43,738 bases of DNA from a virus. Lineage: Duplodnaviria; Caudoviricetes. The translations under genes and the position numbers were made by a program. Below are positions 7,189-43,738 of the stretch, piece by piece (the first letter of the stretch is position 1; each line of letters opens with the position of its first letter). The notes under the pieces are model-generated. The model was not told where the DNA came from, did no database searches, and was given only the letters and a program-made list of their open reading frames with translations. The DNA lies in the IMG/VR virus record IMGVR_UViG_3300046738_000027, positions 1 through 43,738 of that record; one strand, given 5' to 3'.

Positions 7189-8546
7189 GCACCAAGCTGG
7201 CCGTGCCCACCACGGCCGATGACCTCAAGACCGTCCTGCTGGACAAGACCAAGATGAAGACGATCCTGGACGAGGGCTCGCTGCCCGAATTCATGACCAA
7301 CTACGTCAACGAGTTCGGCAAGGTCAACGCCGATGTGGGCGAGCAGGTCCAGATCCAGGTGGAACGGGCCATGGCCTCCTACGCGGCCGAGCGCGGCGTG
7401 GAGCTCAAGAAGGGTGACCGCAAGGCTACCGCCGCGGACATGAAGCGGCAGCGCCAGACGGCCACCTACAAGAGCGGTGAGATCGCCCCCGGCGCGGCGC
7501 TGGACGGCAAGTTCGATGATCTCTGGGACTTCCTGAAGGTCTGCGACGCCAAGACGATCGCGTCCGGCCAGGAGCTCGAGCGGCGCACGCTGATCGAGAA
7601 CGCCATGTCCTCCACCGACCCCGCGTCGGGTGGTTTCCTCATCCCCGAGGAGTTCCGGGCCACGCTGATGCAGGTGGCCTTGGAGAAGGCGCTCGTCCGG
7701 CCGCGGGCCACGGTCATCCCGATGACCTCGCTGCGCATCTCGATGCCGATCGTGGACTCCACGTCCAACGTCTCCAGCGTCTACGGCGGCGTCATCGGCT
7801 ACTGGACCGAAGAAGGCGCGGCGCTCGTCCAGAGCCAGCCCAACTTCGGCCGTGTCGTGCTCGAGGCCAAGAAGCTGACGGCCTACACCGAGGTCCCGAA
7901 CGAGCTGCGCCGTGACTCGGCCATCAGCGTGGAGACCCTGCTGGGCACGATGATGCCTCAGGGCATCGCGTGGTTCGAGGACATCGCGTTCATGTTCGGC
8001 TCGGGCGTGGGTGAGCCGCTGGGCGTGTTCAACGCGCTCAACTCGGCCGTTGTGGCCCAGGCCGCGGTGGGTGGCCAGACCGCGGCCACCATCCAGTGGG
8101 AGAACATCGTCGGGATGTACTCCCGGATGCTGCCCAGCTCGCTGGCCAGCGCGGTGTGGATCGTCTCGCCGGCCGCCCTGCCCGAACTGTTCACGATGGC
8201 GCTGTCCATCGGTACCGGTGGCTCGGCGCTCGGCCCTATTGCCGGCACGATGGGCACCGGTTCGCCCACGCTGTCCCTGCTGGGCCTGCCGATCGTCATC
8301 AGCGAGAAGGTGTCCAACCTGGGCACCGCGGGTGACGTCAACCTGGTGGACTTCAGCCAGTACCTGATCGGCGACCGGATGCAGATGGAAGCCGAGCAGT
8401 CCTCGGACTACCGGTTCGGCAACGACATGATGGCCTACCGGTTCATCGAGCGGGTGGACGGTCGCCCGTGGCTCCAGTCGGCCATCACCCCGCGCAACGG
8501 TGGCCCGACGCTTTCTCCGTACGTGCAGCTCGCGGCCCGTCCGTAA
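7185..8546 (+). CDS. Major capsid protein (HK97 fold)
   Basis: GGFLIPEEF, W..EG, KLTAYTEV..EL..DS, G.G.GEPLG and ERVDG motifs; RBS AAGGAG. Confidence 0.93.
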   Translation: MSTKLAVPTTADDLKTVLLDKTKMKTILDEGSLPEFMTNYVNEFGKVNADVGEQVQIQVERAMASYAAERGVELKKGDRKATAADMKRQRQTATYKSGEIAPGAALDGKFDDLWDFLKVCDAKTIASGQELERRTLIENAMSSTDPASGGFLIPEEFRATLMQVALEKALVRPRATVIPMTSLRISMPIVDSTSNVSSVYGGVIGYWTEEGAALVQSQPNFGRVVLEAKKLTAYTEVPNELRRDSAISVETLLGTMMPQGIAWFEDIAFMFGSGVGEPLGVFNALNSAVVAQAAVGGQTAATIQWENIVGMYSRMLPSSLASAVWIVSPAALPELFTMALSIGTGGSALGPIAGTMGTGSPTLSLLGLPIVISEKVSNLGTAGDVNLVDFSQYLIGDRMQMEAEQSSDYRFGNDMMAYRFIERVDGRPWLQSAITPRNGGPTLSPYVQLAARP

Positions 8547-8668
8547 CCCGTAAGCTGATCATCGCCTGGCAGGGATAGGGGTCCGGACGGCAAATCCGGC
8601 TCTGCTCCCCTGCCAGGCATCCACCCCAGCCGGCAATGATCCCCCGGCCCCTATGAAGGGAAACGATC

Positions 8669-9106
8669 TTGAGTTCCATCCTCGCTCTCGGGCGTACGTA
8701 CAACCTCACCAGTTCGGTGACCACCGGCGCGGCGCGCGTGTCCCTGCGCGACGCCTCGGGCGTCGGTTTCTACATCGTGGGTGCATCGGCGGCCACCACG
8801 GCCACCATCACCGAGGCCACCGCGGCCTCGGGTGGCACCAGCCAGACCCTGGCCGGCACGTTCAGCTACTGGACCCAGGCGGCCGGCACCTCGGTATGGA
8901 CCGCGGGCGTTGGTGGCGTCAACGGCACCTCGATCACGACCGTCGCGAACGCGGCGGCCGCGCTCTACGTGTTCATCCCCCAGGGCGCGCTCTCGGACGG
9001 GTTCAGCTACCTGGCCTGCTCCCACGCCACGGGGACCTCGGTCTACATCATCGGGGACCTGGACGTGCAGCGTAAGGTCACCAACCTTCCGAACGTGCGG
9101 GTCTGA
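8669..9106 (+). CDS. Putative capsid decoration / structural protein
   Basis: Follows the MCP; Ala/Thr/Gly-rich; RBS GAAGGG. Confidence 0.6.
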   Translation: MSSILALGRTYNLTSSVTTGAARVSLRDASGVGFYIVGASAATTATITEATAASGGTSQTLAGTFSYWTQAAGTSVWTAGVGGVNGTSITTVANAAAALYVFIPQGALSDGFSYLACSHATGTSVYIIGDLDVQRKVTNLPNVRV

Positions 9107-22025: not shown

Positions 22026-22271
22026 ATGACGTACACATCCGATCCGGCCAAGGCGGCCGGCCCGAACAACGACGGTGGCCAGAGCCTGGCCAAGGAGAGC
22101 AAGGCCGGTCTCGCGGTCTCGTTCGTGGCGTTCGCCGTGATCCAGGGCGTGGTGGACGCGCTGACCAGGCTGGACCTGAACGGGTTGCAGGGCTGGTGGG
22201 TCTCGCTCGCCGGCGCCGGCGTGGCCACCGTGATCGGCCTCGGAACGGCCTGGCTCAAGAAGAACCGCTAG
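22026..22271 (+). CDS. Probable holin
   Basis: Two TMs, basic C-terminus, RBS GAGGGGGAG. Confidence 0.6.
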   Translation: MTYTSDPAKAAGPNNDGGQSLAKESKAGLAVSFVAFAVIQGVVDALTRLDLNGLQGWWVSLAGAGVATVIGLGTAWLKKNR

Positions 22272-22329
22272 ACTGGACACACGGAAGCCCTGGACCTTTA
22301 CGTGGTCCAGGGCTTCCGTGTGTCCAGTC
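22271..22329. terminator. Bidirectional terminator, 26-bp perfect stem
   Basis: GACTGGACACACGGAAGCCCTGGACC and its inverse between convergent genes. Confidence 0.85.
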
Positions 22330-22335
22330 CGGGTC

Positions 22336-22806
22336 TCAGCGCACGCGGACTTTGACGTCCACCTCCACCGATCCACCGCGGCGCGGCCGGCCGGGCGTGC
22401 GAGCGACGGTCCAGATCAGGAACGCGACGCCCAGGGTGGTCAGTGCCACCGCGCCAGGGATCACCGCGAGCGTGGCCAGGGCCCACCAGCCGGTGGCCAC
22501 CAGCAAGCCGAGCAGGCTGGCGGCGCCGGCGCCGATCAGCACTGGCTTGCGCCAGGCCGGCGCGGGCGGCTTGAGTCGGCGCACCACGAGATGCCACTGA
22601 CGCAGCTCCTCGTGCCAGACCTCGAGGTGAAGGATCTTCACCTCGCCACGGCGCTGCATGTTGACCGCGGCCGAACGCAACGCCCATCGCTCGTGGGCGC
22701 CGGCCGTCAGGATCTCGGTGCACAGCTTCTCGTTCCGGACCACCTCGGTCGGCCGCTTCACATAGAGCGCGCCGGGGGCTCGGGGGCGGTCCAGCTCAGC
22801 GCTCAT
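22336..22806 (-). CDS. Membrane protein
   Basis: MSAELDRP...; two C-terminal TMs. Confidence 0.6.
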   Translation of the reverse strand: MSAELDRPRAPGALYVKRPTEVVRNEKLCTEILTAGAHERWALRSAAVNMQRRGEVKILHLEVWHEELRQWHLVVRRLKPPAPAWRKPVLIGAGAASLLGLLVATGWWALATLAVIPGAVALTTLGVAFLIWTVARTPGRPRRGGSVEVDVKVRVR

Positions 22807-23003
22807 CGCTGATCCCACGAGGCCATCGCGTGCCCGGTCAGCGTGCCGGCCTCGTGGTTGCCGTCGTGGTCCGCGAGTCGCGTGCATCGCCAGATCCAGG
22901 ACGCTGCGGTGTCGAATGCGTTCGCCTTGCACGTGGGCTGATCGCCCACGGCCTGATCCGTGACCAGCGGATACGGATGCTCGTGCTTGGTTATCGATTC
23001 CAT
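22803..23003 (-). CDS. Small Cys/His protein
   Basis: C...CTRLADHDGNH metal-binding pattern. Confidence 0.55.
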   Translation of the reverse strand: MESITKHEHPYPLVTDQAVGDQPTCKANAFDTAASWIWRCTRLADHDGNHEAGTLTGHAMASWDQR

Positions 23004-23449
23004 AGGTAGCCCCCAAGGCCAGTAATGATCATGAGTACAACGGCCCCTCGCAGGGCGTAGATCCCGAGCGTGGCCGCCCGGACTTTCATCAGGTGGGCCG
23101 GGCGGGCCTGCTCGCGCTCGAGGCGCTGGATCTTCTGCCCCCGCGGCCCGACCTTGCCGATCCGCGGATTCTTCTGCCAGTTGTAGCGAGGCAGCAGGAG
23201 CAGGATCACCAGCGTCTCCAACGGCAGGAGCACCCAGTCCCAGCCGAGCCACCACGGCAGCTTGATCAGGATGTAGCGCCGGACCATCAGGTCCCGCCAG
23301 CCCTTGTCCGCGTGCTGGCCGTCGCGCAAATCCAGCCGGTTGCTCTTGCCGACATAGCCCCATTCGGTCCCCGGCCGTAGGTGACGCCGGGTCCGGTAGG
23401 CGTAGATGCCTGGCCGGCGCCGGCGTACCTTGCGCGTCCAGCGGGTCAC
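22991..23449 (-). CDS. GIY-YIG domain protein with C-terminal TM
   Basis: GIY...YVGKS...R..QH...E..I....P.YN; C-terminal hydrophobic helix. Confidence 0.7.
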   Translation of the reverse strand: MTRWTRKVRRRRPGIYAYRTRRHLRPGTEWGYVGKSNRLDLRDGQHADKGWRDLMVRRYILIKLPWWLGWDWVLLPLETLVILLLLPRYNWQKNPRIGKVGPRGQKIQRLEREQARPAHLMKVRAATLGIYALRGAVVLMIITGLGGYLWNR

Positions 23450-23526
23450 GAAATCAGCAGAACGGTGAGGAGAGAGATCAGTCCGAGCGCAAAGAAAATC
23501 AGCGCTGCTCTTAGTTCCAGGTCCAT
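23446..23526 (-). CDS. 26-aa single-TM peptide
   Basis: MDLELRAALIFFALGLISLLTVLLIS; upstream GAGGAG; GTGA overlap. Confidence 0.5.
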   Translation of the reverse strand: MDLELRAALIFFALGLISLLTVLLIS

Positions 23527-23528
23527 CC

Positions 23529-23552
23529 TCACCACTCCTCAGTCTGTGTCAT
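23529..23552 (-). CDS. 7-aa leaderless uORF (MTQTEEW)
   Basis: ATG 6 nt after TATAGT. Confidence 0.4.
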   Translation of the reverse strand: MTQTEEW

Positions 23553-23569
23553 AGCTCTACTATAGCAGA
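23553..23569 (-). promoter_or_regulatory. Conserved extended -10 motif
   Basis: TCTGCTATAGTAGAGCT-ATG. Confidence 0.8.
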
Positions 23570-23781
23570 CTGACATCCGGGTTGCCAACGGGCATCTTCT
23601 CCACCCTGATCTCGTACGCGCCCAGGAGGCGCAGCGTCCCGTCCGGGAGCACCTGAGCCAGCCCACCCGTGGGCGAGCCGGCGTACACGCGCACGGCGGC
23701 CGCGGGGATGTCCGTCCAGGCGTAGGCCGGAAGGTTGATAAATTCCCCGATGTCGCTCGCGGGGATGGGGCTGACGGACAC
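23560..23781 (-). CDS. Hypothetical protein
   Basis: RBS AAGGGAG; stop lies inside the promoter motif. Confidence 0.55.
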   Translation of the reverse strand: MSVSPIPASDIGEFINLPAYAWTDIPAAAVRVYAGSPTGGLAQVLPDGTLRLLGAYEIRVEKMPVGNPDVSLL

Positions 23782-23810
23782 GTGATCTCCCTTGATCGGC
23801 AGAGACAGGA

Positions 23811-23843
23811 CCGGCCCGGGGAGACGGTACTCACCCGGGCCGG
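23811..23843 (-). terminator. Hairpin, possible terminator
   Basis: CCGGCCCGGG/CCCGGGCCGG stem. Confidence 0.55.
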
Positions 23844-23866
23844 CCGTTCACTTGCTTGCTTCCTGT

Positions 23867-24031
23867 CTACTCCACGTTTGACACATCTGCAATACGTCGA
23901 TGGGGTGGGATCTCCAAGTCTTCAGGCTCGGTCACCGTGAAGCCATGCAACCTCAGCTCGTCGGCCGCCTCGCGCAACCTCGTCACCGTGCGCGCGTGCC
24001 TCGCTGCGCGCGTATCGCGCTGTTCGGACAT
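23867..24031 (-). CDS. 54-aa hypothetical protein, divergent from the TraB-like gene
   Basis: MSEQRDTRAA...; RBS GAGGGG. Confidence 0.55.
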   Translation of the reverse strand: MSEQRDTRAARHARTVTRLREAADELRLHGFTVTEPEDLEIPPHRRIADVSNVE

Positions 24032-24091
24032 ATGCCATCCCCTCGTGCAACTTGCAGATTTGCGGGCGTCAACGGGCAGTCTAGCCGACGT

Positions 24092-24107
24092 ACAACCTAT
24101 TGGTTGT
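24092..24107. promoter_or_regulatory. Operator-like palindrome
   Basis: ACAACC-TATT-GGTTGT in the divergent intergenic region. Confidence 0.5.
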
Positions 24108-24127
24108 GTGTGAGGTAGGTTGGAAAG

Positions 24128-25834
24128 ATGCCCCTGAAGCCGATCAAGAGTGCCGCCACCTATCCCTGCCCTCCCGGCTTCAACGGGCGCCTGGCCGGTC
24201 TCTACCGGTGGCTTTCCGGCCGGCCGCTGAACGGCCACCGGTACACCAACGCCACCGGCTTCCGCTACGGCACCGTGGCCACGGACATCAGTGGCTACGC
24301 CACGTGGTACCAATTCCTACCTGGCTATAGGAGATTCCTTGTGGCCAGGCTTCCCGTGATGGCCACGCCGGTCATCGTGGCCATGGCCATCGTGTGGCCC
24401 GTGGCCATCCTCGTGGCCACCCAGGTCATCCTCCTGGCCATGGCCAGACCCGTGGCCATGGCCAGGCGTGGCCACCTCTGGCGCCGCGATGTCCTCGAGC
24501 CACTGGCCATGTCCGTGGCCACGGTGGCCAAGATCAAGCACGTGGCTGGCCATGGCCACCGCTGGGTGACCGTGGCCAGAGACTTCCGGGACGTGGCCAC
24601 GGGCCACGCCGTGGCCATCCGCTTCCCGGTCGGCTGGGTGGGCGAGGAGGGCAGCCGTGGCCAGGTGGCCAAAGTAGTGGCCGACCGACTGTCCGCGCCG
24701 GACATGGTGGCCACGTGGTCACTGGCCGGCCGCGCGCCCACGGTCACGTTCACCATGCCGGCCAAGCCACCGGCCAAGGCCTCGCTGGCCGACATGGCCA
24801 TGCCCGAGGACGTGCCGGCCAGCGAGCTCGCGGCCGGGCTGGGCGCGCGCGGTCAGGTGGCCATCGATCTGGCCATGGAGAGCCCGCACGCCCTGATCGC
24901 CGCGGCGTCCGGCGCCGGCAAGAGCGAGCTGCTGGCCTTCCTGGTGGGCCAGCTCATGCGCCGCGGGTATGGCGTGGCCTGCCTGGATGCCAAGTTCACC
25001 AGCCACATGTGGCTGAGGCGCATCCCCGGTGTGCTCTACGCCAGCGAGTCCGAGGAGCTCCACGAGGCGCTCATCTGGCTGGATGCCGAACTGCTGCGCC
25101 GCGCGCGGCTGATCTCCAGCGGTGGGAACCCGGACACCTTGATCCCGCTGGTGGTGGTGCTCGAGGAGATGAACGCGGCCAGCAACCGACTGAGGGCCTA
25201 CTGGCGCAGCATCAAGGGCCAGGGGGACCCGATGATGAGCCCGGCGCTGACCGCGCTGGGCAACCTCTCCAGCATGGGCCGCGAGCTGCGGATGCACATC
25301 CTGATGGCCGGCCAGAGCCTCAGCGCCAAGGCCACCGCGGGAGCCGAGAACCGGGAGAACTTCGGCATTCGCTTGCTGGCTCGCGCCACGGCGAACCAGT
25401 GGCGGATGCTGGCCCCCCAGATCAAGCCGGCGCCGCTGGGCCGCGGGCCGTCCGGCCGGTGGCACCTGGTGGTGGGCGACAGTCTGCGCGAGCTCCAGGC
25501 ACCGTTCATGGACATCAAGCACAAGGAGGCCGAGTTGATCGCCTGGGCGACCGGCGCGGCCCCGATCCCGGACGTGCCGGGGATGATGCTCGGGCTGATG
25601 ACGACGACATGCGAGAACGAGGAAGCGCCCTGGTCAGAGACTGTGTCATCAGTGCCTGGAACGGGCCTCAGTGAGTACGTGGCGACCCGCCCCGGGCTCA
25701 CCCTCACCCAGCTCCAGAACTGGCGCCACCGGCACGCTGAGACGTTCCCCGAGCCGGTGGGCAAGCGAGGCAGGGCCATCCTGTACGACGAGGCCGCGTT
25801 GGACGTGTTCGTGATGAGCAGGGTGGGCGAGTAG
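24128..25834 (+). CDS. FtsK/SpoIIIE-family DNA translocase, TraB-like
   Basis: N-terminal TM region, PHALI..ASGAGKS Walker A, LVVVLEE Walker B, GR...H...AGQ, RENF; C-terminal HTH-like domain. Confidence 0.8.
   Translation: MPLKPIKSAATYPCPPGFNGRLAGLYRWLSGRPLNGHRYTNATGFRYGTVATDISGYATWYQFLPGYRRFLVARLPVMATPVIVAMAIVWPVAILVATQVILLAMARPVAMARRGHLWRRDVLEPLAMSVATVAKIKHVAGHGHRWVTVARDFRDVATGHAVAIRFPVGWVGEEGSRGQVAKVVADRLSAPDMVATWSLAGRAPTVTFTMPAKPPAKASLADMAMPEDVPASELAAGLGARGQVAIDLAMESPHALIAAASGAGKSELLAFLVGQLMRRGYGVACLDAKFTSHMWLRRIPGVLYASESEELHEALIWLDAELLRRARLISSGGNPDTLIPLVVVLEEMNAASNRLRAYWRSIKGQGDPMMSPALTALGNLSSMGRELRMHILMAGQSLSAKATAGAENRENFGIRLLARATANQWRMLAPQIKPAPLGRGPSGRWHLVVGDSLRELQAPFMDIKHKEAELIAWATGAAPIPDVPGMMLGLMTTTCENEEAPWSETVSSVPGTGLSEYVATRPGLTLTQLQNWRHRHAETFPEPVGKRGRAILYDEAALDVFVMSRVGE
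24276..24875. repeat. TGGCCA palindrome array 1, within the TraB-like gene
   Basis: About 26 exact TGGCCA in 600 bp (manual count). Confidence 0.85.
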
Positions 25835-25879
25835 AGTCAATCACGCCTGACACCCTTCCTATTGCTTGGCCGCGGTGGG

Positions 25880-25926
25880 ACGCACGGAAGCCCTGGACTC
25901 TTCGGATGTCCAGGGCTTCCGTGCGT
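25880..25926. terminator. Bidirectional terminator
   Basis: 19-bp stem with TTCG loop; 16-bp arms identical to the 22271 terminator. Confidence 0.85.
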
Positions 25927-25933
25927 GAGGTGG

Positions 25934-26065
25934 TCAGATGTTGCTGGTGTCGATACCCCCGGCGCCGTTGCAGGCAGGGCACGGCTTGTTCCGGTCAGAC
26001 TTGTCCCTGCCGTCTCCCCCGCAGGTCAGGCAGGTCTTCCAGATCTTGATGATGAAGCGGATCAT
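25934..26065 (-). CDS. 43-aa DnaJ-type zinc-finger miniprotein
   Basis: CLTCGGDG...CPACNGAG; RBS GGAGGTG. Confidence 0.7.
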   Translation of the reverse strand: MIRFIIKIWKTCLTCGGDGRDKSDRNKPCPACNGAGGIDTSNI

Positions 26066-26087
26066 GTTTCACCTCCCTGAGGTCGCT

Positions 26088-26104
26088 ACCTCTAGTATAG
26101 CAGA
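26088..26104 (-). promoter_or_regulatory. Conserved extended -10 motif (TATACT variant)
   Basis: TCTGCTATACTAGAGGT. Confidence 0.7.
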
Positions 26105-26112
26105 GAGGAAGG

Positions 26113-27054
26113 TCAGGAGGAAGGGGGTGCGCTGACCGGTCCTAGAACGGCCGAGCGCCACCGGCGCGCCGTGCGCGTGCTGCGCCCGAGGTAGGCCGCC
26201 AGCAAGATGTCCACGTCCTTGCCGGTCAGGCCGCTCGCGATCGGGTCCCAGGCCCGCAGGTAGCCCTCCACGCCCGAGGGCACATCGGCCGGGCCCTTGC
26301 GCTGAGGCAGAGGACCGGGGACCACCGGAACCTGGGTGCCCTGGACGAACCGCTCAGCCTCGTTGGCCAGATCGCGGCCGGCCTCGTCGATGGCCTTCTC
26401 ATAGCCGGCCGTCCACGCGTCCAGCTCACCCTCGGGCCGGGTGGCCACGGGGTCAGCTGCCATGATCGCCATGTCCAGGGCGTCCGGTGACGGTGGCCAG
26501 AACGAGGTGGCCACTTCCGTGGCCGCGGGGTCCGGCTGGCCACGGAAGGCGGCCTCGCTGACGGCCACGTCCTCAGCCGTGGCCACGGGACCTGTCCAGC
26601 CGGCCGGCGTGGCCAAAGCGTCCGTGGCCATCGGCTTGGCCACGTGGCCACGGCGGCCGGCCAGGATCAGCGCGGTGGCCAGGATGGCCAAGGAGTCGAT
26701 GGCCAGTGGCCACATGATGGCCACGTCCTCGGTCTGGCCATGGCCAACGAGCCAGGCGTGGCCATGGGTCCACGAGGCTCGCATGGCCACGCCACCGATG
26801 TAGGCCACGCTGGCCACGCGGATCACCTGGACGGGCCAAGCGCGCCCGACCCACCAGCGCGAGACGAATAGCTCCACCGCGAACACGACGAGACCGGGCA
26901 TGGCCACGGCCGTGACCAGATCGGCAGGCTCGAGCAGGGGCCCGCGGTTGGCCACGGTCTGGAGGATGTTGTACATGATCGAGAGTCCGGCTCCGATGGC
27001 CAGCGCCACGTAGGCGATACCGGCCGTCCAGATCTTGGTCAGGCGATGCATCAT
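26113..27054 (-). CDS. Membrane-anchored HTH protein (DUF2637 / Spd-like)
   Basis: Four N-terminal TMs (SW.H...PLAID motif), disordered linker, C-terminal LAAYLGRSTRTARRW HTH. Confidence 0.7.
   Translation of the reverse strand: MMHRLTKIWTAGIAYVALAIGAGLSIMYNILQTVANRGPLLEPADLVTAVAMPGLVVFAVELFVSRWWVGRAWPVQVIRVASVAYIGGVAMRASWTHGHAWLVGHGQTEDVAIMWPLAIDSLAILATALILAGRRGHVAKPMATDALATPAGWTGPVATAEDVAVSEAAFRGQPDPAATEVATSFWPPSPDALDMAIMAADPVATRPEGELDAWTAGYEKAIDEAGRDLANEAERFVQGTQVPVVPGPLPQRKGPADVPSGVEGYLRAWDPIASGLTGKDVDILLAAYLGRSTRTARRWRSAVLGPVSAPPSS
26364..27002. repeat. TGGCCA palindrome array 2, within the DUF2637-like gene
   Basis: About 23 exact TGGCCA in 640 bp (manual count). Confidence 0.85.
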
Positions 27055-27293
27055 GCGTCCTCTCCGCTGAGGGTCACGGTGGCGTCATCGTCGTGGTAGA
27101 CCTCCATGTGTATCGTGGCGAACTCGACGGCGTCCACCAGTCGGTGGTGATGGATCACCTTGCGCGCCTCGTGCGCCACGAGATTGGGGCCGCGCACGCC
27201 GGCGTCCGTGCACGTCCCGCCGTAGCCCTCGCCATCCTCGGTGATCTCGATCTCGGCCCCAGTGGTCTCGCTCCGGACGATCAGTTTCGCCAT
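27051..27293 (-). CDS. Hypothetical protein
   Basis: MAKLIVRS...; RBS AAGGAGG. Confidence 0.65.
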   Translation of the reverse strand: MAKLIVRSETTGAEIEITEDGEGYGGTCTDAGVRGPNLVAHEARKVIHHHRLVDAVEFATIHMEVYHDDDATVTLSGEDA

Positions 27294-27314: not shown

Positions 27315-27331
27315 ACCTCTACTATAGCAGA
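27315..27331 (-). promoter_or_regulatory. Conserved extended -10 motif
   Basis: TCTGCTATAGTAGAGGT. Confidence 0.8.
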
Positions 27332-28287: not shown

Positions 28288-28554
28288 TCACGCTTTTCCC
28301 TGCTCGTCCTTCCAGATCCACCAGCCCTGGCTTTCGTCCCCGCCCAGCCACTGAGGCGCCGGTGGCGGCACCGTCCGCGGCAGGGGCGGCCGATACCCCC
28401 GGCGCCGGTGGCGACCCGGCTTGGCCGTGCTGTCCAGTCCGGGGCCCGGATCGGTGAAGACCACGGCCCCGTACGTCACCAGTACGTAGACCAGCGCCAG
28501 CAGACCCACCAGCAGCCAGCCCGTCAGGCTGAGCCCGGCCAGGAAGCCCCTCAC
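28288..28554 (-). CDS. Small membrane protein
   Basis: N-terminal TM; GTGA overlap. Confidence 0.55.
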   Translation of the reverse strand: MRGFLAGLSLTGWLLVGLLALVYVLVTYGAVVFTDPGPGLDSTAKPGRHRRRGYRPPLPRTVPPPAPQWLGGDESQGWWIWKDEQGKA

Positions 28555-29249
28555 GCGGGGCCGCGCTCGGGCAGGAAGCCGGGGCCGGCGCGCAGCACGC
28601 CCGCGCGCCGGTTGAGCTGGATGGCCATCATGCCCGGCGTCACGCACTGCCGCGCCACGCCCTCGATCACCCGCTTGCCGGCCAGGGACCAGCACTGATC
28701 CACCAGCACGGAGCAGATTGCCTCTCGGGGGAGACTCTCCCCCTCATGCCATAGCACGGCGCGCTCAGGGTCCAAAAGGCGCATGTTAATCGTGCGGCGC
28801 CGATCAATCCACCGCTCCAGCCGCTCCGCCTTCAGCCCGCGGGACCATGCAGCAAGCGCCACGTAGGAGAGGAAGGAGTAGGGCACCTTCTCCGAGACGA
28901 ACAGGCGCGCGATGGCGGCCGCGTCCTGCGCCTGGCCCGGGTAGTCCTCGGGGAGCCGGAACCAGACGGCACCGTCCGTCCAGTGCTTGGCCGGCGTCAG
29001 CGCGATCTCCTCGGCGCCGCGCGGCATAGCCTGAACGGCGCGAGCGGCGTACTCCGAGACGCCGGTGCCACCCTGCTCGACGCAGACCAACACGTGATCA
29101 GCGCTAAACGGCCCAATCCGGAAGCTTTCTTTACAAAACCACTGTCCGACCTCGACCGGGAAGAACCCCGGCACGATGCCGCCCATCCGCGTGATGCAGA
29201 TGTCCCCCGGCCGGACATCGGCCAGCGACCTGATCTCATCGGCGGTCAT
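28551..29249 (-). CDS. Permuted papain-like (NlpC/P60-related) hydrolase
   Basis: PGD...DHV...QAMP.G...PYS...ICS.LV...VTPG, with His before Cys. Confidence 0.7.
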   Translation of the reverse strand: MTADEIRSLADVRPGDICITRMGGIVPGFFPVEVGQWFCKESFRIGPFSADHVLVCVEQGGTGVSEYAARAVQAMPRGAEEIALTPAKHWTDGAVWFRLPEDYPGQAQDAAAIARLFVSEKVPYSFLSYVALAAWSRGLKAERLERWIDRRRTINMRLLDPERAVLWHEGESLPREAICSVLVDQCWSLAGKRVIEGVARQCVTPGMMAIQLNRRAGVLRAGPGFLPERGPA

Positions 29250-29464
29250 ACCTTCACCCACACCCTTCGCCACTGGCGCCGCGTGTCGCCCGGGAAGACC
29301 TCGCAGTCCTCACAGGTCGCCATGTACGGCACGTCCGGCTCCTCGGCGCCGAACCTGTCCACATCGGCAAGCCGGAACCACGCCGAATGGTTGCAATCGT
29401 CCGCCACGAACAAGGCTTCCGTCCCCGTGCCGGACTGGACCGTGATGTCCTGGTAGCTAGCCAT
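29246..29464 (-). CDS. Hypothetical Cys/His protein
   Basis: CNH...CEDC; overlapping operon organisation. Confidence 0.55.
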   Translation of the reverse strand: MASYQDITVQSGTGTEALFVADDCNHSAWFRLADVDRFGAEEPDVPYMATCEDCEVFPGDTRRQWRRVWVKV

Positions 29465-35083: not shown

Positions 35084-35217
35084 GGCTCGTGGCCCCAGGT
35101 GAGGTAGTCCGCGGTGGCCTCATCGTCGTTCTTCGGCTGGTAGTGGTTCGCCCGGGTGGCCGCGAACCCGGCGCCGGCAAGCAGGCCCAGGCCGACGAGG
35201 ATCCAGAGCCACATCAC
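35080..35217 (-). CDS. 45-aa membrane peptide
   Basis: MWLWILVGLGLLAGAGFAA... Confidence 0.5.
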   Translation of the reverse strand: MMWLWILVGLGLLAGAGFAATRANHYQPKNDDEATADYLTWGHEP

Positions 35218-35813
35218 GAGGTCACGGCCTTGACCAAATCAGGGGCCAGGGAGCGCAAGGCCATTGCGCGCTCCGCTTCACTGGCCGACTTCATCCAATA
35301 GCGGATAGCCCCGTTGTCCTTGATCGAGAGGAGGTGATCTCGCCTGAGGTCTTTCGATACCGGGAAGATCCATCGGTCCTTTACGTGCTGAACCTGATCC
35401 GTTCCCCAGTTACCCGCGCCTGTCGGCGGGGGACGTAGTCGCTGCCAGGTCGGGGCCCACCGCCAGTTACATGCCCGATAAAGGGATCCCGTGTGCCCCT
35501 GGGAGGGATCGGAATAGCTGACCAAGGTGGTCACGACTCTGGACTTGAGAAGCTTGACCGCGGCCGCGTGCTGCCGGCTCCCCGCGTTCGGCCCGGCCTC
35601 GGGCGTCAGGCACCAGCGAGAGAGCTCCAGCCAGGATCCGTCTGAGGGGAGCCGGCGTGATGTCGGGCGGCGCCAGACTTGAGCGGCCACCACTCGGCCA
35701 TCGTCCACTCCGACGACGATGGCCGAGAAAGCGCCGGATTTGATCGGTCCGAGGTAGTGATGTTTCTCCAGCAGGGGATCGGCCTCGGCCTTGGTGCCGA
35801 TGCGCCACATCAT
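35214..35813 (-). CDS. Mom-like GNAT DNA-modification enzyme
   Basis: HHYLG, LELSRW and VSYSD..QGH.G..YRA.NW motifs. Confidence 0.75.
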   Translation of the reverse strand: MMWRIGTKAEADPLLEKHHYLGPIKSGAFSAIVVGVDDGRVVAAQVWRRPTSRRLPSDGSWLELSRWCLTPEAGPNAGSRQHAAAVKLLKSRVVTTLVSYSDPSQGHTGSLYRACNWRWAPTWQRLRPPPTGAGNWGTDQVQHVKDRWIFPVSKDLRRDHLLSIKDNGAIRYWMKSASEAERAMALRSLAPDLVKAVTS

Positions 35814-39115: not shown

Positions 39116-41380
39116 ATGGAGGCATCCGTGCTTGAGGATAACAACATAGTGTGGCCGGCCGCACGGGAGTACGTACAGAACGGCATCTATGTGTATCCCG
39201 TGTACGTCTCGCGCAAGCCGGACGGCAAGAAGAGTGTCCGTCCCGTCGGCCCCTGGCGCGACGGGAGCTCCCGGTCCCTGGCCGACATCGGCGCCTGGCA
39301 GCAGGAGCACTCGAGCGCCGGACTGCTAATCGACACCGGCAAGAGCGGTCTCGTCGTGGTCGACTGCGACGGCCAGGAGGGCATGGCCAACTGGCTGGCC
39401 CTCAATCCGCCCGCACCTCTGGCGCTGGTGAAGACGGCCGGGGGTGGCGAGCACTGGTACTACCGGGCCCACCCGGACCACCCGATCGGAAACGATCAGG
39501 ACGGCAAGGTCGCGCCGTTCGTGGACGTCCGGGGCCTGGGCGGTTTCGTCATCGCGGCCCCGACCACTGACGGCATCGGCCAGTGGTCGCTGATGGGTCA
39601 ATCTCCAGACGGATGGGTCTCGGACGGGTACTGGGTTCCTCAGGTGGTCATCGACCGGATGAGGGCCGTGAAGCCGTCCCCCACAGCGGCCGCCGAGGAA
39701 GACCCGTTCGATGACCCGGCCCGGGAGTTCACCAAGGCCCAGGCCGTGGAGTGGGTCAGGAAGGCCAGGGCGGAGCTCGCCGCCACCACGTCCGGCTTCA
39801 ACGGCGCCATCAACTCGTTCGCCATGGCGTGCGCGCACTTCCCCTGGCTGGTGGACCGCGAGCGCTGCGCCCGGCTGATGATCACCGCGCTCAAGCCGGT
39901 GACCGGCTGGGCGGCGCCGGACGGCAACGATCTCCAGACGATCAACTCGGCCTACTCGGCCACCGAGGCCGGTCGCTCCTGGACCGCGGCCAAGAAGGAG
40001 CCGTCCGCCACGGTGGCCCCGGAGTCCGGCGCGGCCCCCGGGCCTCTCGAGATCCTGCCGCCACCCGGCCAGCCGCTCCAGGTGGCGCGCGAGCTCGCCG
40101 GCCAGATCCCAGCGACGGACGGCCAGCCCCATCGGGCCTGGTGGCGCGATGACTTCTACCGGTGGACAGGCGCGCACTGGGAGGTGGAGGACGTGCCCGA
40201 GGTGGAGCGCTGGCTGTACGGCCAGACCGGCGATGCCGTGTATCTGAGCCCGGCCAAGAAGGAGGGGGAGGAGCCGGTCCGGACGCCGTGGGCGCCCACC
40301 CGGCGCAAGATCGGGGACGTGGCCCACGCGCTCGGGGTCGGGGTGCTCCAGCGCACCGGCGAGGCCGAGCCCGCCCTGGCCGCGGCTAACGGCGTGGTGG
40401 TCGGGCGTGAGCTGCTGCCGCACCGGCCCTCGCGATTCAACCTGTTCTCGCTGCCGTTCGACTACACCCCCGAGGCCGAGGCGCCGGCCTGGCAGGCGTT
40501 CCTTGACCAGGTGCTCCCGGGCGACCGGGAGAGCCAGGATTTCCTCGGGGAGTGGTTCGGTTACGTGCTGGCCGGGCGCACCGATCAGCAGAAGATGGCG
40601 GCCCTGATCGGCAAGAAGCGCTCGGGCAAGGGCACGATCGCGCGCGTGCTCGGGGCCCTGGTGGGCAAGGAGAACGTCTCAGGGCTCAACCTGGGCACCC
40701 TCGGGAGCACGTTCGGGCTGGAGCCCCTGGTGGGCGCGGCGCTGGCCGTGGCCTCGGACGTGCGCTGGCACTCGCGCAACATCGGCGACGCCGTGCAGAT
40801 CCTGCTCGAGGTGTCCGGCGAGGATCACGTCACGGTCCACCGCAAGAACAAGCAGGCCTGGAAGGGCAAGCTGGGCGTCCGCTTCATGCTCATGAGCAAC
40901 GACACGCCGACCTTCAGCGACAAGAGCGGGGCCCTGGTGGACCGCATGCTCTACGTCTCGTTCAAGCAGTCGTTCTTCGGGCGCGAGGACATCAGCCTGA
41001 CCGAGAAGCTGATGGACGAGTTGCCCGGGATCTTCAACTGGGCCCTGGACGGCCTCGAACGTCTGGACGGCCGCGGGCGGTTCACCCAGCCCGAGAGCGG
41101 CAAGGCCGAGGCCGAGAGTACGCGCCGGCTGGCCGACCCGATCGGGGCATTCATCGAGGACTGGTGCGATGTGGCCGATGGCGAGCGCATCTCCCTGGAC
41201 CACCTGTTCCTGAAGTACCAGACGTGGTGCGAGAGCGAGGGCCGGACCAGGGACACAACCACGAAGGAGATCTTCAGCCGGGATCTTCGGGCAAAAGTGG
41301 ACGGACTGACTTCCAAGCGCGTCCGGGAGAACGGCAAGTACGGAACCATGCTGCACGGGATCGGATCGTCCGCGGTCTGA
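39116..41380 (+). CDS. Prim-Pol primase fused to a D5/P4-like SF3 helicase
   Basis: LVVVDCD, TAGGG.H.YY and DVRG.GGFVIA motifs; GKKRSGKG Walker A, MSN; alternative start GTG 39128. Confidence 0.9.
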   Translation: MEASVLEDNNIVWPAAREYVQNGIYVYPVYVSRKPDGKKSVRPVGPWRDGSSRSLADIGAWQQEHSSAGLLIDTGKSGLVVVDCDGQEGMANWLALNPPAPLALVKTAGGGEHWYYRAHPDHPIGNDQDGKVAPFVDVRGLGGFVIAAPTTDGIGQWSLMGQSPDGWVSDGYWVPQVVIDRMRAVKPSPTAAAEEDPFDDPAREFTKAQAVEWVRKARAELAATTSGFNGAINSFAMACAHFPWLVDRERCARLMITALKPVTGWAAPDGNDLQTINSAYSATEAGRSWTAAKKEPSATVAPESGAAPGPLEILPPPGQPLQVARELAGQIPATDGQPHRAWWRDDFYRWTGAHWEVEDVPEVERWLYGQTGDAVYLSPAKKEGEEPVRTPWAPTRRKIGDVAHALGVGVLQRTGEAEPALAAANGVVVGRELLPHRPSRFNLFSLPFDYTPEAEAPAWQAFLDQVLPGDRESQDFLGEWFGYVLAGRTDQQKMAALIGKKRSGKGTIARVLGALVGKENVSGLNLGTLGSTFGLEPLVGAALAVASDVRWHSRNIGDAVQILLEVSGEDHVTVHRKNKQAWKGKLGVRFMLMSNDTPTFSDKSGALVDRMLYVSFKQSFFGREDISLTEKLMDELPGIFNWALDGLERLDGRGRFTQPESGKAEAESTRRLADPIGAFIEDWCDVADGERISLDHLFLKYQTWCESEGRTRDTTTKEIFSRDLRAKVDGLTSKRVRENGKYGTMLHGIGSSAV

Positions 41381-43513: not shown

Positions 43514-43738
43514 TCGATGCCATCACCCTGCTGCGCGCCCGAGAAGCTGGCCTGCCCGCGGCCGAGAGTCACCCCGATCCGCCGCTGGCCTGCTACCCGC
43601 TCAAGGTGGATTGGCTGAACGCCGGTGGGTATGCCCCGGATGTGAAGCGCTTCCCCGAGCCGGCCGTCCCGGCGCATCTCGCCCCGGCCGAGACCTGGCC
43701 CGCCCCCGTCAAGACGGTGTGCGGCCTGGCCTGGAGTC
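43510..43738 (+). CDS. 5' part of the junction-spanning hypothetical gene
   Basis: Open to the window end; continues at position 35. Confidence 0.7.
   Translation, partial: MIDAITLLRAREAGLPAAESHPDPPLACYPLKVDWLNAGGYAPDVKRFPEPAVPAHLAPAETWPAPVKTVCGLAWS
43705..43738. repeat. Terminal direct repeat, right copy
   Basis: 33 of 34 bases identical to 1-34. Confidence 0.9.

Follow-up and report, generated by a model that had tools for sequence, protein, structure and literature searches.

The window analysed here is the whole 43,738-nt viral record IMGVR_UViG_3300046738_000027 (Duplodnaviria; Caudoviricetes) of IMG/VR, a complete-looking siphophage that carries a compact module of three genes: tra, encoding an FtsK/SpoIIIE-type ATPase (24128-25834, + strand), a gene for a DUF2637 membrane protein (26113-27054, - strand) and a gene for a putative membrane-anchored GIY-YIG nuclease (22991-23449, - strand). 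It is proposed, at about even chances, that in productive infection of a probably filamentous actinomycete this module drives double-stranded phage DNA, once replicated, through a membrane pore, past hyphal cross-walls and into adjacent compartments, the nuclease providing the linear ends. Directly established are the identities of the genes, their joint conservation, the repeat arrays in tra and the DUF2637 gene, and the lack of recognisable genes for integration, partition or repression. An earlier note on this DNA had suggested a phage-plasmid spreading both as virions and by direct translocation between hyphae; the nuclease partner and the arrays had been overlooked in it.

The tra product belongs among membrane-anchored FtsK/SpoIIIE ATPases. 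It matches FtsK_SpoIIIE in Pfam (E 7e-6), and PF01580 was matched in 41 of 47 homologues. Across the same 47, taken into the alignment from 120 listed matches, the Walker A residues G264-K265-S266 and the Walker B residues E346-E347 are unchanged. Hydropathy marks two hydrophobic segments at the N-terminus (residues 77-95 and 94-112), which appear as long helices in the AlphaFold2 (AF2) model (predicted local distance difference test, pLDDT, 85.7) and constitute a predicted membrane anchor. At the C-terminus, the model predicts a helix-helix-hairpin-helix module with the topology of a MerR/excisionase-like winged helix-turn-helix (HTH) at about residues 510-566, HTH_17 and MerR_1 each being matched in only one of the 47 homologues. 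The earlier description of a membrane-anchored FtsK-family ATPase with an HTH-like C-terminal domain is in this way borne out, as a prediction, by Pfam, hydropathy and modelling. The best Foldseek matches of the model are TcpA, the coupling protein of pCW3 (E 4.5e-14), and the motor of FtsK (E 5.8e-13).

Plasmid relatives of Tra are numerous: 132 plasmid records match it, 27 of them covering at least 80%, and the best reach 30-33% identity across 95-96% of its length. The five matches inspected individually all lie on linear plasmids, and in three of them (pRL2, pPR2 and pFRL6) a DUF2637 gene is annotated beside tra. A phylogeny of the ATPase, which had been suggested as a check, places Tra with linear-plasmid Tra proteins and apart from those of pIJ101 and pJV1 (SH-aLRT 99), in what is a quick tree with long outgroup branches and SLP2 TraB left out. 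Close kinship to the Tra proteins of pIJ101, SLP2 and pJV1 was ruled out by BLAST (E 0.27, 3.7 and 3.8, respectively). On the strength of the fold match, the plasmid matches, the BLAST values and the tree, the protein appears to work like a Tra and is a member of the pRL2.11 family, at a distance from the characterised TraB proteins compared. The plasmid-type transfer module claimed earlier therefore stands in part: Tra falls among the plasmid Tra proteins of actinomycetes, and its pairing with DUF2637 is the one known from pRL2, pPR2 and pFRL6, but it is not close to the Tra proteins of pIJ101, pJV1 or SLP2.

The second partner matches DUF2637 in Pfam (E 4.8e-5) and combines a conserved N-terminal membrane domain, a variable linker encoded by the repeats and a C-terminal HTH, the last recognised by alignment and by weak HTH Pfam matches in the homologue of locus L003. 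Described earlier as a four-transmembrane (TM) protein with an HTH, it retains the HTH and gains the DUF2637 assignment; hydropathy gives three clear segments, with a fourth under the threshold. It is a predicted membrane DNA tether. No tblastn match to it was found in cultured phages or plasmids.

The third gene, at 22991-23449, lies among the small TM genes noted earlier at 22336-23526; these are real, but this one encodes a protein with GIY-YIG motifs, a predicted GIY-YIG fold and a putative nuclease activity. The protein itself has no Pfam match, and Atlas groups it with GIY-YIG clusters (0.92). Residues Y16, Y32, G34, R42, H46, E78 and N90 are identical in 29 of 29 homologues; in the GIY-YIG family, the Tyr/Tyr-x-Gly, Arg, His, Glu and Asn residues have catalytic roles. 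Its AF2 model (pLDDT 92.5) aligns in VIA with I-TevI (Z 7.6, root-mean-square deviation 2.0, 74 residues) and UvrC (Z 7.2), the first unrelated row scoring 3.1; rows 1-11 in Foldseek are likewise UvrC/I-TevI, with probability up to 0.99 and E>0.03 throughout. A hydrophobic helix at the C-terminal end, seen by hydropathy, forms the predicted membrane anchor. In all, 332 homologues were found; the nuclease had no match in plasmids, cultured phages or the 11 reference loci, and PHROGs holds no family for the module genes.

Conservation across relatives ties the three genes together. Among 8000 scored candidates, 192 Tra homologues were recovered; the best 119 of these, self excluded, are 49-68% identical, and 22 lie on contigs of 40.8-45.2 kb and none on longer ones. 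In pattern scans, the 30 matches in viral contigs included 6 relatives and the 113 in metagenome contigs included 39, whereas none of the 37 in GTDB genomes was a relative. Tra and early genes are common to the window and eight whole relatives, four of which have distant or undetected head genes. A second Tra clade, only 26-30% identical, occupies the same slot in 10 loci found via DUF2637 or nuclease searches. Tra, DUF2637 and nuclease occur together in all 26 phage loci assessed, across both clades; these loci bear Tra, were drawn from 56 phage-type loci and either extend at least 2 kb to each side or are matched by a complementary locus. The 30 left out comprise 28 with short flanks, L112, which begins at the nuclease, and L096. 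Nine of the 26 were recovered through DUF2637 or nuclease and not through Tra.

Gene order varies within this constancy. In six loci (L003, L005, L012, L019, L021 and L029), DUF2637, tra and nuclease follow one another on one strand, whereas in the group to which the window belongs tra keeps its place but is turned round. Among the loci left out, L038, a 30% relative, has DUF2637 and no nuclease in the stretch examined. L096 (whole record G010, 35.9 kb) is a natural partial-loss variant: its DUF2637 gene (7884-8768) with a GGACA array is present, no Tra occurs in the whole record, and the nuclease was not found within the 16.6-kb locus examined. Altogether, the Tra-DUF2637 pair is a conserved feature of the lineage and not a chance capture, and the carriers are a widespread group of ~43-kb tailed phages whose hosts are probably filamentous soil actinomycetes.

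Two of the genes contain dense arrays of short repeats. Array 1 places 26 TGGCCA sites in the 5' part of tra (24276-24875), and array 2 places 23 within the DUF2637 gene (26364-27002); 51 of the 94 sites in the genome lie in 22300-27100. Synonymous-codon resampling (5000 draws) leads to an expectation of 6.9 +/- 2.1 sites in tra (maximum 16) and 6.5 +/- 2.1 in the DUF2637 gene (maximum 15), so the content of hydrophobic amino acids does not account for the arrays. The units are 5-6 nt long, palindromic or in both orientations, and within coding sequence. In six of nine whole genomes, tra and DUF2637 hold the two 1-kb bins richest in GG(A/C)CA(C/T). The motif in relatives is TGGCCA, GGACA/TGTCC or a mixture of them, in proportions that agree between the tra and DUF2637 genes of one genome (Spearman 0.93, n=31, kinship uncorrected) in both Tra clades.

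As a lead only, the DUF2637 HTH looks a better candidate than Tra for the protein that reads the arrays. A helix ending in RR[WY]R is present in this HTH in 10 of 10 TGGCCA-type genomes and 1 of 12 GGACA-type genomes (a post hoc count), and Tra-less L096 carries 15 sites in its 885-nt DUF2637 gene compared with 2.9 per kb elsewhere. A reading of the arrays as polar TraB sites recognised by Tra is disfavoured, because near-identical Tra helices accompany different motifs in L054 and in L008/L009, and because L096 keeps its 15 sites; in general, the sequence of the Tra C-terminal helix does not follow repeat type. Prediction of motif type from a basic residue in the turn of the DUF2637 HTH, suggested by part of the data, fails for L087 and L091. 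Changes of motif label on the DUF2637, Tra and nuclease trees number 9, 8 and 7 (shuffled means 14.9, 12.7 and 13.4); since these counts do not separate the candidates, no single reader is picked out. The DUF2637 gene of pRL2 has internal short repeats of its own, and in the plasmid genes 5' of tra at L080:9031-10086 and L084:11880-13088, the linker regions contain short repeats specific to each element, so proteins of the DUF2637 type may generally have arrays embedded in their own genes.

Genes for stable maintenance are not recognisable. The earlier finding of no integrase is upheld by the absence of matches to PF00589, PF07508 and PF00239 in the window and of any integrase in 132 Pfam scans of open reading frames (ORFs). 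The profile search for recombinases and ParA that had been recommended came back empty in 14-15 near-complete records: tyrosine integrase, resolvase and ParA (PF13614) were each found in 0 of 14 and serine recombinase in 0 of 15. HTH_3 and GntR likewise exceeded the cut-off in 0 of 14, with sub-threshold matches in four (HTH_3) and three (GntR). ParB had no Pfam match in the window, relatives' ParB not being searched for, and no terminal-protein family appears among the window's general Pfam matches, which involved no search aimed at terminal proteins. Stable plasmid life is doubtful, since no integrase, resolvase, ParA, clear repressor or relative in a GTDB genome was found; maintenance at high copy number without par genes, or a repressor of an unusual kind, is possible.

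These features can be combined into a mechanism of three steps. The DUF2637 HTH would bind the GG(A/C)CA arrays and hold phage DNA at the membrane. The anchored GIY-YIG nuclease would then cut or debranch replicating DNA and release free ends, a step that fits because the Tra family is otherwise seen on linear plasmids. Finally, a Tra hexamer would thread the DNA into the neighbouring compartment; another round of lysis would start there, so that one virion could exploit more of the mycelium. Transfer across cross-walls is favoured by the FtsK/TcpA fold, the grouping with linear-plasmid Tra proteins, the co-occurrence in 26 of 26 loci, the second clade in the same slot and the absence of maintenance genes from near-complete records. 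It is further favoured by Thoma et al. (2015; PMC4447253), who link TraB and membrane proteins of the SpdB2 type to spreading within the mycelium and suggest that SpdB2 homologues in the phages phiC31 and VWB may spread phage DNA. A bolder version is more doubtful, though still conceivable: in an obligately lytic lineage, the conjugation pump of linear plasmids would have become a device for infection from cell to cell. The membrane nuclease would cut unit-length DNA out of the replication pool, an HTH tether with a genome-specific code would capture it, and Tra would inject this DNA through septa and also into uninfected hyphae in contact with infected ones, without need of capsids or receptors.

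Several observations weigh against septal transfer. The arrays lack polarity, the sites in tra being split 22 to 19 between the two orientations, unlike clt with its direct 8-bp repeats, and the array signal is weak or partial in three whole genomes (G001-G003). G010, which is without Tra, shows that at least one relative can dispense with the module. Homology between the DUF2637 protein and the protein encoded at 666-1781 of pJV1, which we take to be SpdB2, is undetectable (hhalign probability 0.3), and neither this protein nor the SLP2 spdB2-like protein nor pIJ101 SpdB matches the DUF2637 profile. The host is deduced only from the lysin, 38% identical to that of Actinoplanes phage phiAsp2, and the capsid, 43.7% identical to that of Streptomyces phage Dagobah. 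Phages of Bacillus, a unicellular host, carry FtsK-like genes too, and for this reason an FtsK fold alone does not imply wall crossing. In addition, transfer is shown for no pRL2.11-family protein in the literature found.

Among the alternatives, a stable extrachromosomal phage-plasmid that can in addition pass by conjugation from the hyphae of one mycelium to those of another, close to what the earlier note had envisaged, survives best, although it is unlikely. The Prim-Pol/D5 replicase, the Tra-DUF2637 pair as on linear plasmids and a palindrome 5' of tra are all compatible with such a life, and high-copy plasmids can do without partition genes, as illustrated by pIJ101, in which no ParA is annotated among nine listed genes. 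There is also a precedent in the Streptomyces plasmid-phage pZL12/phiZL12, which combines virion genes and an FtsK-like transfer gene on one replicon; it is cited as needing tra and two adjacent genes (PMC3583192). However, pZL12 measures 90 kb and possesses ParA, ParB, a recombinase and a GntR regulator, whereas the near-complete records yielded no ParA, integrase, resolvase or serine recombinase and no HTH_3 or GntR over the cut-off. Its FtsK gene is not matched by the phage Tra at E 1e-5, and no nuclease homologue is present in the 80 kb examined. The lack of relatives in GTDB genomes, set against their frequency in metagenome contigs, speaks against a resident state as well, as does the position of tra directly behind a phage-type TATAG promoter-like motif in L006, L016 and L017.

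Slightly less probable is a membrane translocase-nuclease that destroys the host chromosome, or superinfecting phage DNA on its entry, by a HerA-NurA-like logic, with the arrays serving as self marks or loading sites. The constant pairing of nuclease and Tra, together with the absence of the nuclease from plasmids and reference loci, would suit such a machine; HerA-nuclease complexes occur among the weaker fold matches of the Tra model, and T4 EndoII among those of the nuclease model in VIA. The best fold matches of Tra are nevertheless TcpA and FtsK and not HerA, and the DUF2637 partner and the N-terminal domain resemble plasmid transfer loci. About equally improbable is a purely intracellular role without wall crossing, in which the module anchors replicating phage DNA to the membrane and resolves concatemers so that they can be packaged. 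It draws on the Bacillus phages mentioned above, on a Dagobah version of 309 aa without a membrane part and on a weak match between the nuclease and the SLX1 profile (E 0.23). Against it stand the facts that the phage already has endonuclease VII and terminase, that G010 manages without Tra, and that the swap for another membrane-anchored plasmid-type Tra suggests that membrane function matters.

Comparison with known systems helps to place the module. The closest counterparts are the pRL2.11-type pairs of pRL2, pPR2 and pFRL6, in which Tra is 31-34% identical over 71-80% of the query and a DUF2637 gene lies alongside, that of pRL2 again with short repeats inside it. The phage module differs in its tailed-phage setting and in the inversion of tra against its partners in most members, and adds the membrane GIY-YIG nuclease and the arrays in tra. 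The TraB/SpdB2 systems of pSVH1, pIJ101, pJV1 and pWTY27, as far as the accessible texts describe them, likewise join a membrane FtsK-type ATPase to a multi-TM DNA-binding protein and have short repeats near or in tra (PMC4447253; PMC3583192), clt repeats being described in the latter. Against these, the phage Tra has no significant sequence match to the pIJ101, pJV1 and SLP2 proteins, and the phage has non-polar repeats in coding sequence, no direct 8-bp clt and no GntR over the cut-off.

Phage comparisons are looser. phiC31 and VWB resemble the window in having membrane proteins proposed to aid DNA spread in mycelium; both are temperate (VWB by a title cited there), and only SpdB2 homologues are mentioned for them in the accessible part of that source (PMC4447253). 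Homology between these SpdB2-like genes and the DUF2637 protein was not detected. Dagobah (PMC7650747), which has the closest cultured capsid, also encodes a pRL2.11-family ATPase core (34%), but this protein (L001:2547-3476, annotated as hypothetical) lacks the membrane and HTH parts, and no DUF2637 or nuclease homologue was found in the 23 kb examined. The plasmid-phage pZL12 and the SpdB2-like genes of phiC31 and VWB were already known; new here are the nuclease partner and the maintenance-free lineage, neither of which was found in print. A literature search that covered few subscription papers and no supplements found no description of a module of Tra and a membrane GIY-YIG protein.

Aid from Spd-like phage proteins in movement through septate mycelium is, in the accessible text, a suggestion (PMC4447253), and no test of it was found. 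With three compact genes, clear catalytic residues and a defined cis array, the idea is testable on a laboratory Streptomyces replicon without phage culture. If transfer across cross-walls is true, lytic phages can also spread without capsids, and a form of Tra-type transfer exists in which a nuclease assists. Furthermore, the variable tether-motif code could supply membrane DNA anchors for engineering.

The rest of the genome is that of a tailed phage. The record is 98% complete (CheckV), with a G+C content of 62-71% per kb, and its ends overlap by ~35 nt with one mismatch (1-35 versus 43704-43738), a reading frame seemingly spanning the join. Little is probably missing in view of this overlap, which is what a circular or permuted map would show; the one DNA sequencing run compared with the right end gave a single contig ending at 43716. 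The head, tail and lysis genes reported earlier are present: Pfam identifies terminase, portal, ClpP and capsid, PHROGs the tape measure and major tail genes, and the lysin has its closest cultured match in phiAsp2. Pfam likewise confirms the Prim-Pol/D5 replicon, at 39116-41380, and recognises SF2 and RecD-like helicases and endonuclease VII. From the capsid and lysin matches to Dagobah and phiAsp2, a filamentous actinomycete host is likely; a host search via the lysin in GTDB genomes found nothing.

Candidate regulatory elements lie around the module and elsewhere in the genome. A promoter-like motif, TGCTATAGT, occurs in 13 copies (777, 2645, 22001, 23559, 27321, 27589, 27675, 27957, 31359, 34854, 37524, 37566 and 41667), one of them 5' of the DUF2637-bearing operon (27321-27329, - strand). 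Several copies are followed by ATG within a few bases, and these likely yield leaderless transcripts. An imperfect 16-nt palindrome (24092-24107) lies 36 nt 5' of the tra start and is a possible operator, palindromes being present 5' of tra in several relatives. A short palindrome of the TGCAAC/TTGCA type is shared between 24045-24107 and the regions 5' of tra in L008, L009, L025, L048, L049 and L054, several of which have a second palindrome near the tra start. Between tra and the convergent DUF2637 operon, a hairpin at 25878-25926 (repeat family D19, inverted repeat I22) is likely a bidirectional terminator. A sister copy at 22271-22329 also lies between convergent genes, and the two bracket the nuclease-tra block.

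Two further small genes flank the nuclease gene on the same strand. The one 3' of it (22336-22806, - strand) encodes a protein with two TM segments predicted by hydropathy, a possible Spd-like accessory with homologues in four of the eight whole relatives (tblastn); directly 5' of the nuclease gene, a 26-codon hydrophobic ORF was read from the sequence (23446-23526, - strand). Elsewhere, a Mom-family gene (35214-35813, - strand; Pfam E 3e-15), undetected in the eight whole relatives, points to possible DNA modification. Finally, a gene 1.5 kb from DUF2637 (28551-29273, - strand) is kept in all eight whole relatives; Peptidase_C92 is found in 12% of the members of one Atlas set for it, and as a lead, its product could be an envelope hydrolase that aids the module.

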